Of a stretch of DNA of 4,057 nucleotides, positions 1-4,057 are shown one piece after another. The stretch lies in the IMG/VR virus record IMGVR_UViG_2693429733_000020, positions 1 through 4,057 of that record; one strand, 5' to 3'. Both the position numbers and the translations under genes were made by a program. This DNA comes from a virus (taxonomy: Duplodnaviria; Heunggongvirae; Uroviricota; Caudoviricetes). The notes beneath the pieces are model-generated. The model made no database searches. It saw only the letters and a list, made by a program, of their open reading frames with translations, and had not been told where the DNA came from. Numbering within the stretch: position 1 is the first letter of the stretch; each line of letters opens with the position of its first letter.

Positions 1-262
1 AAATAAATAACGCGTCGCCGGAAGCCACGTCATAAACCGTTTTACCCCGATGATCTTCAACGAGATGCCACGATGACTCATCACTGTTGAAAACAGCCAC
101 GAAACCAGCCGGAATATCTGGCGGTGCAATATCGGTACTGTTTGCAGGCAGACCTGTATGAGGCGGAATATATGCGTCACCTTCACCAATAAATTCATTA
201 GTTCCGGCCAGCAGGTTATAAATTTTTATGGTCCGTGCTTGTTCACTCATTCTGAATGCCAT
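1..262 (-). CDS. tfa: tail fibre assembly protein (Tfa), N-terminal 87 codons; gene continues beyond the window start
   Basis: Reverse-complement translation from ATG at 262..260 gives [87 protein letters not shown]..., which matches the lambda Tfa N-terminus as I recall it almost residue for residue. GAGG Shine-Dalgarno 8 nt upstream. Start overlaps the stf stop (TAATG). Open to the window edge. Confidence 0.9.
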
Positions 263-3200
263 TATGCGAGCCTCACAATATAGTTAAATGCGATGTTTTT
301 GACGGTGTTTTCCGCGTTACCAGCAGCGTTAACGGTGATGGTGTGTCCATGTGAACCAATCGCAACAGAGTGCGTATGAGCACCAATACCGACAGTATGC
401 GCGTGTGCACCCGCAGATGCTGCTGTGCCGGACAGTGAGTGTGTATGGTTTCCTTCTGAAGATGATTTACCTACCCATTGGGAGGTGCCACTGGTTAATG
501 AGCCACTGATACCAACCTGATTAGTCCCGCTAACTTGAGTACTCCCTGCCGGAAACATTCCAGTAGGTTGACTCCCGCTATTCGTTCTGGGCCCAGTCTG
601 ACTATGTTGGTGGGCCCCAGCTGAACTTGTAGAGCCGCTCAGACTGTGCGTATGCGCCCCGGTGTTATTCGTGGATTTAGTGCCGTAATCAAACGACGAT
701 GTGGTTTTCGTCCCCAAATCCGTACTGGATGCGCTGGCGCTGTGGGTGTGCGATTTAATGCCATCCTGTTCCTGAGACAATACGGCACGACCACTGGCGG
801 GCTTGCCCTTAATCGTCCAGCCACGCATATCAGGGATCACGCCTGACGGATAAGCGGCTGCAAGTTTCGGGTAAGCAGATTTGTCAAAAGTCTGCCCCTG
901 CATCAGGGCATAACCAGACGGAACGGTATCTGATGGCCACGGGATTGGTGCACCGACTGGATAAAACTCTGCAGGAGGATGAGCCGAGGTGTAAAGCTGC
1001 GCCCACGGCGACCAGTTTGCGTCGGTCGTATCCCGTCGTGAACGAATAAATGCCGGAGCATGAGCACCGCTTGTACCACTCCAGCCGATGAGTAACTCAC
1101 CTTCGCCAACGGCTGTCATCCCTTTCAGGTGAATGATATTTCCATACGCTGTTGGATATCCGTTGTTATACACCTCGTATAACTCAAGACCTGCTGCCCC
1201 CTGCGTATTGTCTGTCAGCGCGGCTACCCGACCTTTTGAAGCCAGATTAACTGATGATACTGCTGTTCCACCTGACGGTAGCGCCCCGATCTCTGATGCC
1301 GTTGGCTTATTTCTGGAGTTATAGTCCCTTCGCCAGCCAGGTGAATAATCTGTTCCGTGATTAATATAGGTAAACTGGGCGTTGGTTGTTCCGCCACCGC
1401 TGGATGTGGTCGGAGTGGTAATGCGGATCGTCATCGCTGACTTTATCCCCATTACTTCAATGACAGCTCCGGCGAGATGAATATTACCGCAGCCAGTATC
1501 AGTAATGATTTTATTATTGCCATAAGACCAGGAACCCTTGCACATCCAGTATGGATGGTTAAATGCTCCCTGAGAATCCAGCCACTCGATAAACTGTGCA
1601 GTCGTCCAGTTTCCTGTTGTTGTGCTTACTGACCCACCGAAGGCACGGCAGGCACCAATATTTTTCGTAAAGGTGTCTTTGCCAGGGATATCCGCACCGT
1701 TCTGATCTTTCTGCAGACGTTTCTCAGCATTGTCATTGGCTGCTTTTACTGCCTTTGGCGTTGCCGCCAGCGTTTCAGACGTGCTGTTGGTCGCGCTGCT
1801 TAGCTGGATTATCCCTTTCTGTGCTGTCGTTGCATCCTGTGCGGTGTATTTCCCGTTAGCCAGGTCATACGCGGCCTTAACGGCTTTTGGTGTTGCCGCC
1901 AGTGACTCGGAAGTGCTGTTAGTCGCACTACTGAGCTGTACTATCCCCTTTTTCGTCGTGCTCGCATCCTCAAGCGCCACGGCGGATGCAATATCCTCTG
2001 CCCGTTTTGCCGCTGTCTCAGCGCGCGTTGCTGCAGATTCCGCCGTACTTTTGCTCTGAGCTGCTGCCGTCGCACTACCAGCAGCCTCTGTCGCCTTCGT
2101 GGATGCCGTCGTGGCGCTGCCCNNNNNNNNNNNNNNNNNNNNNNNNNNNNNNNNTCGCTGCTGACGCCTGTCTGGTCGCCTCATCTTTTGAAGCAGACGC
2201 CGATGATGCCGATGACGCCGCCGAACTGGCGGACGATGCGGCAGCCGTTTTTGAGGATTCTGCGCTGGTTTCCGACGCTTTCGCGTTCGTTTCGGATGTC
2301 TTCGCTGCGGAAGCAGACCTCGCTGCTGCGCTGGCCTGTTCAGTGGCTTCGCCAGCCTTCGTTGTGGCTGTTGAAGCGGATGATGCGGCGCTTTCTGCCG
2401 ATTTTCCGGCGGCGGTGGCACTGACTGCTGCCTCCTCTGCCTTAATGGACGCCTCACGGGCCGATGATGCAGCTGCTGTCTCAGAGTCTGCCGCAGCTGA
2501 GGCGCTCTGTTCCGCTGCCGTTTCAGAAGACTTAGCATTCGTCTCGGACGTTTTTGCCGCCTTCACGGAATTTCCTGCCGCCGTTGCCGAGGAGGCTGCA
2601 CTGCTGGCGCTTGTGGAGGCGTTCGTTTCTGATGATTTTGCCGCCTCTTTGGAGGCCGCCGCATCTCTGGCTGAAGTGGCGGCTTCTGACGCTTTCGTCG
2701 TCGCAGTGGATGCAGAAGTGGCTGCTGATTTTTGTGACGCTGCAGCATTCGTTTCTGACGTTTTCGCCGCACCGGCACTGGTGGCCGCCGCGCTTTTTGA
2801 GGACTCTGCAGCGGCAGCACTTTTTTCCGCNTGTTGAAGCGGATGATGCGGCGCTTTCTGCCGATTTTCCGGCGGCGGTGGCACTGGCTGAGGCCTGCCC
2901 GGCACTTGTTGACGCGGCGCTGGCAGACGACGCAGCCGCTGTTTTTGAGCCTGCCGCAGCTGAGGCACTCTGTCCCGCTGCCGTTTCAGAAGACCTGGCG
3001 TTCGTCTCGGACGTTTTGGCCGCCTTCGCAGAATTTGCAGCCGCCGTCGCCGAGGAAGCTGCGCTACTGGCGCTTGATGATGCGTTCGTTTCTGATGATT
3101 TTGCCGCCTCTTTTGAAGCCGACGCATCCCGGGCTGAGGTGGCAGCTTCTGACGCTTTCGTGGTCGCGGTGGATGCAGAAGTGGCTGCTGATTGTTGTGA

Positions 3201-3987
3201 CGCTGCCGCATTCGTTTCTAACGTTTTCGCCGCACCGGCACTGGTAGCCGCCGCGCTTTTTGAGGACTCTGCAGCGGCAGCACTTTTTGAGGCTTCAGTG
3301 GCCTTTGTTGATGCCGTTCCTGCGCTGGAAGACGCTGACTGAGCCGACGAAGCGGCCTGTCCGGCTGACGTGCTGGCTGCACGTGCTGAATCTGCAGCAT
3401 CAGTCGCATGGGTTGCCGCCTCACGGGCTGATGTGCTGGCATCGCTGGCTGATTTCTTCGCGGCTGCCGTGTTCTGTGCCACCGCGGACGCGTTANNNNG
3501 CGGCCTGTCCGGCTGACGTGCTGGCTGCACGCGCTGAGCCTGCAGCATCAGTCGCATGGGTTGCCGCCTCACGGGCAGATGTGCCGGCATCACTGGCTGA
3601 CTTCTTCGCGGCTGCCGTGTTCTGTGCCACCGCGGACGCGTTACGCGCCACCTCTTCCACCATCAGCTCAAAACGGCGCAGTGCCTCCGGACGGGCATCA
3701 TCCTCCGTCATGGCACCGAGAAAATCATTCAGCGTACCGGGTCGGGAATCTTCATACACGGTGATGGTCCCGGCATGTGACGGCGGGAATCCTTCCACCA
3801 ACAGAATAACGCTGTACTGACCGTACTCAACGTCCATGCTGTAACGCCCGGCTTCATCCGGATTTTCTGAGGCCAGCGTGTTCACCACCACCGTGGTGCT
3901 GTTACGTTTTGCTTTCAGCTGGATTGTGCAGTTCTGTACCGGTTTTCCTGTGCCGTCTTTCAGTACACCTGAAATCTTTACTGCCAT
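262..3987 (-). CDS. stf: side tail fibre protein (Stf), lambda-like and mosaic; reading frame as given is broken at three N-runs
   Basis: ATG at 3987..3985 (the track's GTG at 3993 is 2 codons upstream) opens [36 protein letters not shown]..., the recognisable lambda Stf N-terminus. Four collinear in-frame segments on the minus strand: 3500..3987, 2832..3495, 2155..2830 and 262..2122, separated only by N-runs. The protein ends ...[31 protein letters not shown], then TAA at 262..264, which is lambda-Stf-like. Start and stop are in the same frame overall. Segments 2 and 3 read as continuous Ala/Ser/Thr-rich Stf repeat sequence. Confidence 0.9.
271..274 (-). promoter_or_regulatory. putative ribosome-binding site for tfa, inside the 3' end of stf
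   Basis: Minus strand GTGAGGCTCGCATA-ATG: GAGG with 8-nt spacing to the tfa ATG at 262..260. Confidence 0.4.
336..750 (-). other. His-rich repeat region of the Stf C-terminal tip (HTH/HAH/HQH/HGH motifs)
   Basis: Translation contains [57 protein letters not shown]: repeated G-x-H-x-H units of the kind found in lambda Stf and T4 gp37 distal tips. Confidence 0.55.
1732..1968. repeat. in-frame coding repeat, 2 copies with period 132 bp (44 aa), encoding the KGI(V/I)[11 protein letters not shown](S/T)[11 protein letters not shown] motif
   Basis: Minus-strand translation shows [35 protein letters not shown] and [35 protein letters not shown] at 1864..1968 and 1732..1836; the DNA copies are visibly similar on the plus strand. 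Confidence 0.75.
2123..2154. other. assembly gap or ambiguous bases (32 N)
   Basis: Run of 32 n characters inside the Ala/Ser/Thr-rich part of stf. Confidence 0.99.
2369..3293. repeat. tandem direct repeat, 2 x ~462 bp (2369..2830 and 2832..3293) joined by a single N; offset 463
   Basis: Both copies start tgttgaagcggatgatgcggcgctttctgccgattttccggcggcggtggcactg and end gaggactctgcagcggcagcacttttt. About 45 bp identical, then a ~65-bp divergent block, then roughly 92% identity. Both encode ~154 aa of Ala/Ser/Thr-rich Stf repeat ([24 protein letters not shown]...[11 protein letters not shown]). Confidence 0.8.
2831..2831. other. single ambiguous base (N)
   Basis: One n character, sitting exactly at the junction of two ~462-bp tandem repeat copies. 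Confidence 0.99.
3352..3643. repeat. tandem direct repeat, 2 x 144 bp (3352..3495 and 3500..3643) separated by NNNN; 137/144 identical
   Basis: Direct base-by-base comparison: copies start gcggcctgtccggctgacg and end gacgcgtta, with 7 substitutions. Each encodes [19 protein letters not shown](G/S)[14 protein letters not shown](G/D)[12 protein letters not shown] on the minus strand. Confidence 0.85.
3496..3499. other. assembly gap or ambiguous bases (4 N)
   Basis: Run of n characters, sitting exactly between two 144-bp near-identical direct repeats. Confidence 0.99.
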
Positions 3988-3990
3988 ATT

Positions 3991-3996
3991 CACCCC
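3991..3996 (-). promoter_or_regulatory. putative ribosome-binding site for stf
   Basis: Minus strand TTGTGGGGTGAAT-ATG: G-rich stretch 5 nt upstream of ATG 3987. Weak match to the SD consensus. Confidence 0.3.
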
Positions 3997-3998
3997 AC

Positions 3999-4025
3999 AA
4001 AAAAGCCCGCCTGAACCGGCGGGCT
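3999..4025 (-). terminator. rho-independent terminator between the upstream gene and stf
   Basis: Minus strand reads AGCCCGCC-GGTTCA-GGCGGGCT followed by TTTTT: a perfect 8-bp GC-rich stem (4004..4011 paired with 4018..4025), 6-nt loop and T-tract 3999..4003. The T-tract ends 11 nt before the stf ATG. Confidence 0.65.
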
Positions 4026-4057
4026 GTCATAACACTGTGTTACCTGGCTAATCAGAA

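Follow-up and report, generated by a model that had tools for sequence, protein, structure and literature searches.

What fills the middle of a lambda-like side tail fibre where the homology to lambda breaks off? The question is raised by a 4,057-nucleotide (nt) stretch of DNA, hereafter the window, which comprises positions 1 to 4,057 of the IMG/VR record IMGVR_UViG_2693429733_000020 of a Caudoviricetes virus. Its minus strand carries stf, a side tail fibre gene of the lambda/Qin type, and an earlier reading of the bare letters (the original prediction) had singled out the stf segment 961-1731 as an unusual central module. We found that the segment is routine tail-fibre mosaicism, common in Escherichia coli prophages and already known in kind, and that it consists of two globular modules, A and B. 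We regard it as ordinary because the block to which it belongs is abundant, is already annotated as tail fibre and includes one domain for which the structure of a close homologue has been solved. That fibre modules pass horizontally between lambda, Mu, P1, P2 and T4 has been in the textbooks since the early 1990s; the papers of Haggard-Ljungquist et al. and Sandmeier et al. on the P2 and P1 fibres, both of 1992, are said to deal with such exchange.

The central segment of stf

On the minus strand, 961-1731 encodes exactly the peptide quoted in the original prediction, in 257 codons that are in frame and contain no stops. As had been proposed, it lies between the linker repeats and the GAPIPWPSD tip; Pfam places two Phage_fiber_2 repeats on one side and a Collar domain on the other. 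Its absence from lambda Stf was likewise borne out. In a blastn comparison with lambda 18900-23200, homology stops at window position 1745, where the second linker repeat ends, and resumes at 954, leaving 955-1744 without a lambda match and the central region not collinear with lambda Stf, and tblastn of the segment against the same part of lambda returned noise only (E above 2). The predicted boundaries were 7-14 nt from these measured homology breakpoints.

The contiguous 790-nt A-B block is present with at least 80% coverage in 800 of the 5426 complete E. coli genomes, and 711 records match it at 99% identity or more at any coverage. Window 955-1744 is 100% identical in CP148034, and phages SPF_0923 and PhiR42_1 carry the block at 99%. 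Hundreds of genomes contain it at 98% identity or more; the segment is conserved coding sequence, and chance can be set aside.

Two independently shuffling modules

The original prediction described a single central module in a gene of three parts. BLAST of the segment against 120 database homologues, from which we took the module boundaries, resolved instead two modules that shuffle independently (Table 1). The gene is indeed a mosaic, but it has more than three parts: a lambda-type N-terminus and shaft, a duplicated Phage_fiber_2 linker, module A, module B, and a collar with a gp37-type needle that has a non-lambda head insert of its own. The suggestion of a globular domain rather than a shaft repeat was upheld, since AlphaFold models give two compact beta-rich domains. 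In contrast, the view that the segment is unrecognisable or unusual was not, because module A is closely related to a solved fibre structure and module B has the known fibre Knob fold.

A PDB sequence search matched module A to the Mu S' fibre 8JU3 with E 8e-70 and about 80% identity (query 131-315 against chain 178-362). The sequence homology covers the whole domain of the Mu/P1 S' variable region, and the fold is that seen in 8JU3. Four cysteines had been claimed for the segment, but there are three, at residues 28, 64 and 81 (window 1648-1650, 1540-1542 and 1489-1491), and all of them sit in module A. Cys64 and Cys81 are nearly invariant among homologues. Further cysteines at segment positions 66 and 89 are almost equally frequent, in 33 and 32, respectively, of 80 module A homologues, of the P1 type; a cysteine at position 85 is a mark of the Mu-type module. 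Taken together, these patterns suggest paired cysteines or a metal site.

Module B, searched alone against PDB sequences, had no match up to E 10 and was placed only through fold comparison. Its AlphaFold model has six strands (predicted local distance difference test, pLDDT, 83.5; predicted template modelling score, pTM, 0.74), conforming to an antiparallel beta-sheet of five or six strands joined by loops. The best fold matches were Knob domains of T4 gp34, of R-pyocin fibres and of the receptor-binding proteins of Staphylococcus phages phi11 and K; the matches listed include the phi812 receptor-binding protein, the AS12 tailspike (6EU4), phage K gp144 (5M9F) and the phi11 receptor-binding protein (5EFV). 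Similarity to the reference Knob domains 5NXF/5NXH, 5EFV, 5M9F, 6EU4 and 6CL6 was found. The module ends in a W..W..YT...P motif.

Neither module matched a family in Pfam or NCBIfam. The sole match, to Gp34_trimer (PF21446) over residues 116-175, that is, over the A-B linker, scored 18.3 bits (E 0.003) against a gathering cut-off of 27 and falls below membership. Domain databases alone would therefore leave the segment seeming “unknown”.

Among the 120 homologues, modules A and B occur apart, in either order and duplicated. Phage records follow the same pattern: module A without B is found in Mu, SfMu, P2-like and Yersinia phages, and B without A in Goslar, Ro157c2YLVW, SI7 and many Vibrio phages; P1, SSU5 and P1-like phages have both, and in P1 Sv' module B (residues 47-153) precedes module A (215-358). 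The A-B pair stands before at least three different tips, which elsewhere are another gp37-type variant (P0009/P0012) or a Mu/P2-type distal domain (P0032/P0044). The homology blocks share a recurring terminal motif, W..W..Y(T/N)...(K)P.A...GA, which closes module A, module B and the second domain of Mu S'. The mapped seams (~1745/1716, 1284/1272 and 954-973) are natural fusion points and could guide chimeric stf designs such as those of PMC11338833, in which the engineering of chimeric lambda stf for lambda-based delivery particles exploits fibre mosaicism; the practical value is modest. Two Photorhabdus fibre proteins, P0017 and P0021, each carry module A as a tandem duplicate, at residues 12-156 and 139-278 in P0017. 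The fibre fragment P0071, 88% identical to module A, is labelled 'sugar ABC transporter permease' at its source, which is evidently an annotation error.

Comparison with known fibres

The closest relatives differ in what surrounds the modules. In Mu S' (gp52, G(-) orientation; PDB 8JU3, Mori et al. 2024, Virology 593:110017), the module A homologue is followed by Mu's second domain and a Mu/P2-type distal tip and lies in the Gin-invertible G segment, whereas in the window module A leads into module B and a gp37/lambda-type tip as part of a lambdoid stf. The variable part of P1 S' (Sv', C(-) orientation), annotated as an alternative host-range fibre end, shares both modules, B at 64% and A at 82% identity; it differs in having B, a linker and then A, a Mu-type tip, and a location in the Cin-invertible segment. 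A search of the window, the E. coli genome CP148382 and the K-12 locus that allowed up to 5 mismatches to the 20-nt P1 cixL core found no cix- or gix-like site, and the Mu/P1-type module is therefore not invertible here. A reading of the region as an invertible segment was rejected on this ground. Intact loci do have a pin-like recombinase gene beyond tfa, the tail fibre assembly gene, but an alternative fibre end is not annotated there.

With lambda Stf (orf-401 and orf-314) the gene shares the N-terminal domain, the Ala/Ser-rich shaft, the Phage_fiber_2 linker, the Collar, the His-x-His (HxH) needle and the downstream tfa. It differs in its 263-amino-acid (aa) A-B block, in place of which lambda has an unrelated central stretch of about 147 aa that takes in the N-terminus of orf-314, as well as in the duplicated linker repeat, single in lambda, and in the distal head insert. 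Likeness to the Knob domains of R1/R2 pyocin fibres, T4 gp34, phi11 gp45 and phage K gp144 (Buth et al. 2018, PMC6116203) is that of a monomer model, with sequence identity of only 9-19%.

Role of the modules in the fibre

We favour, with a probability of roughly 0.65, the reading that the segment forms two self-contained globular domains acting as trimeric folding and spacer nodes of the side tail fibre, with specificity mainly in the Tfa-aided tip. The A-B block would have replaced lambda's stretch via recombination at short conserved linker motifs, namely the Phage_fiber_2/'RLxKDxNGADIP' motif at the upstream seam and, at the downstream seam, the W..W..Y(T)...(K)P.A...GA motif found at the end of each domain. 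Module A corresponds to the domain at the start of the variable part in the S' fibres of Mu and P1. From the homologues we infer that in the assembled fibre each module probably makes up a trimeric node, which would keep the three chains in register, stiffen and lengthen the distal fibre, and set the gp37-like tip at a distance from the shaft. Specificity for the host would lie mainly in the head of the tip, folded with the help of the separate Tfa chaperone, and the knobs may add weak contacts to conserved core sugars of lipopolysaccharide (LPS).

Two observations bear on where specificity resides. The identity of module A is 70-85% among the fibres of lambda-like, Mu, P1, P2-like and Yersinia phages, whose tips are unrelated and whose hosts differ, and, because the module is so highly conserved before unrelated tips, this comparison of sequences argues against module A as the determinant of strain specificity. 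A distal head insert inside the HxH needle (~442-627, minus strand) finds no counterpart in lambda DNA and gives a poor alignment with T4 gp37; on these grounds it is probably the receptor-specificity determinant of the fibre.

Several points weigh against the preferred reading. The node architecture is taken from homologues, and the models are of monomers only. Module A is larger than Knob domains and has helices; the whole-segment model matches gp34 and pyocin fibres, but these matches are possibly carried by module B, so that module A is at most a candidate for the Knob fold. When modules A and B were compared by hhalign with each other and with the second domain of Mu S', the sole similarity was the 20-residue C-terminal motif, and these alignments, shallow as they are (effective number of sequences, Neff, ~2), do not demonstrate that the modules share an ancestor. 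Within module A, a stretch at segment residues ~25-41 is variable among homologues and surface-like. Finally, the Knob precedents, pyocin Knob2 in target specificity and K1F in sialic acid binding, would make a real binding role possible.

These last points lead to the alternative that survives best, although we consider it unlikely: one or both modules may serve as a secondary site of receptor binding, for instance as a lectin for LPS core sugars, which would contribute to host range and orient the fibre. The fold of module B is that of a Knob, and for Knob2 of R-type pyocin fibres a secondary receptor-binding or orienting role has been put forward (PMC6116203). Buth et al. reported ligand mimics bound to Knob2 and high Knob2 sequence diversity, argued that Knob2 aids target specificity, and noted that a knob-like beta-prism of K1F binds sialic acid (PMC6116203). 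Module A, for its part, belongs to the host-range-switching variable part of Mu/P1 S', LPS core is the reported target of the Mu gp51/gp52 fibres (PMC11821841), and residues ~25-41 of the module vary among homologues. Set against this are the conservation of module A before unrelated tips in different hosts, the internal position of both modules, and the lack of any match to a carbohydrate-binding family in Pfam or NCBIfam.

More doubtful still is a specific form of this idea, in which the A-B pair would be a tip-independent lectin cassette that binds, some 10 nm above the tip, a conserved sugar of the LPS core. If true, the side tail fibre would be bivalent, with a strain-specific tip receptor and a core sugar, and the cassette would fix the angle of the fibre on the cell surface, as proposed for R-pyocin Knob2 and foot; it would also explain why the cassette is carried unchanged before unrelated tips.

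Known intramolecular chaperone domains, of the endosialidase/Peptidase_S74 type, are C-terminal and are cleaved off. The original prediction had allowed for an intramolecular chaperone; on such a reading the segment would be a chaperone or assembly domain needed for trimerisation and then removed. Knob-like domains have been proposed to aid trimer folding (PMC6116203), and the weak, sub-threshold Gp34_trimer match lies over the A-B linker. However, the segment is internal, with 234 tip residues after it, no Peptidase_S74-type family was among the Pfam matches up to E 1, a dedicated tfa chaperone gene directly follows the stf stop codon, and the Mu homologue belongs to a crystallised fibre protein (8JU3); a chaperone is thus highly improbable. 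Hardest of all to credit is that the A-B-tip junctions are an assembly artefact, chimeric joins of different prophage fibres: the window has three runs of N, each where the shaft restarts in copies 95% and 88% identical, and the median number of related fibre loci per E. coli genome is two, with a maximum of nine, but every N run lies upstream, at window position 2123 or above, 262-2121 is continuous, and the block is intact in complete genomes and two phage isolates, on which basis an artefact was rejected for the segment coordinates.

Qin prophage context

The best-matching intact stf allele, of 983 aa and 98% identical to the gene of the window, is present in another strain, CP148382, at the ydfJ-ydfK (Qin) site, between lom/J and tfaQ with a pin-type recombinase gene. 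It is annotated as 'prophage tail fiber N-terminal domain-containing protein', a name also used in RefSeq. The stfQ pseudogene of the K-12 Qin prophage shares this locus with the intact allele. It is 100% identical from mid-module B onward, is followed by tfaQ and pinQ, and has lost everything upstream of mid-module B; it is now interpretable as a truncated version of this gene and its architecture. The remnant lies at 2501-3453 of the K-12 Qin locus (NZ_CP064679), and the deletion of its upstream part abuts nohA.

Gene layout and flanking features

Table 1. Features of the window (coordinates in nt of the 4,057-nt stretch)
Feature	Position	Strand	Basis or remark
stf, side tail fibre gene, lambda/Qin type	262..3987	minus	ATG 3987-3985, TAA 264-262
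Two tandem Phage_fiber_2 repeats (...ATPKAVK)	~1837-1962 and 1714-1836	minus	Pfam PF03406, E 2e-42, 2 stretches
Module A, Mu S'/P1 S'-type globular fibre domain	1285..1716	minus	Segment residues ~6-149, predicted structured core 18-136
Module B, Knob-like six-strand beta domain	973..1272	minus	Segment residues ~154-253, predicted structured core 163-246
Collar domain (GAPIPWPSD...)	811..954	minus	Pfam PF07484, E 3e-12; lambda homology restarts at 954 (blastn)
gp37/lambda-Stf-type His-x-His needle and distal head	265..810	minus	PDB and lambda comparison
tfa, tail fibre assembly gene, 5' part	1..262	minus	ATG overlaps stf stop (TAATG)

The last 619 codons of stf (262-2121) form a single uninterrupted frame. 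By blastn, the gene is 87.6% identical at the DNA level to the 5' end of lambda orf-401, with another stretch at 86%, and homology covers the N-terminal tail-attachment domain and the Ala/Ser-rich shaft. At the other end, the C-terminal tip is 70% identical to lambda orf-314 over 252 aa, with Collar, HxH needle and tfa all present, and the end of stf with the start of tfa (orf-194) is 93% identical to lambda DNA. Counterparts of tfa in E. coli genomes are annotated as tail fiber assembly protein or tfaQ. The Collar and needle tip are homologous to the T4 gp37 tip, matching its structure 2XGF with E 3e-81 in a PDB sequence search; the HxH repeats of the Pfam family Phage_fiber scored slightly under the cut-off (19.3 against 20 bits).

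Both Phage_fiber_2 copies match the one copy of lambda (blastn). The linker (1714-1962) has two copies in the window and one in both lambda and the otherwise 98%-identical CP148382 allele; the two-copy form is also seen in the database fragment P0003.

The N runs, all in the 5' two-thirds of stf, are at 3496-3499, 2831 and 2123-2154, and the reading frame is broken across those of 4 and 32 N. Two stretches recur: 3500-3643 is 95% identical to 3352-3495, and 2832-3288 is 88% identical to 2369-2825. In the window the gene extends over 3726 nt, against 2952 nt for the intact CP148382 allele. These shaft repeats reflect either paralogous fibre fragments joined in scaffolding or a genuine expansion of the shaft.

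Rfam, promoter and terminator scans of both strands of the segment found nothing relevant, and short plus-strand open reading frames across it were set aside as mechanical. The stf ATG is preceded, at a distance of about 17 nt, by a strong terminator-like hairpin (4004-4025, minus strand; 8 pairs, 7 of them GC, followed by TTTTTTG). This hairpin presumably ends an upstream lom-like gene, and expression of stf would then need read-through or a promoter of its own.
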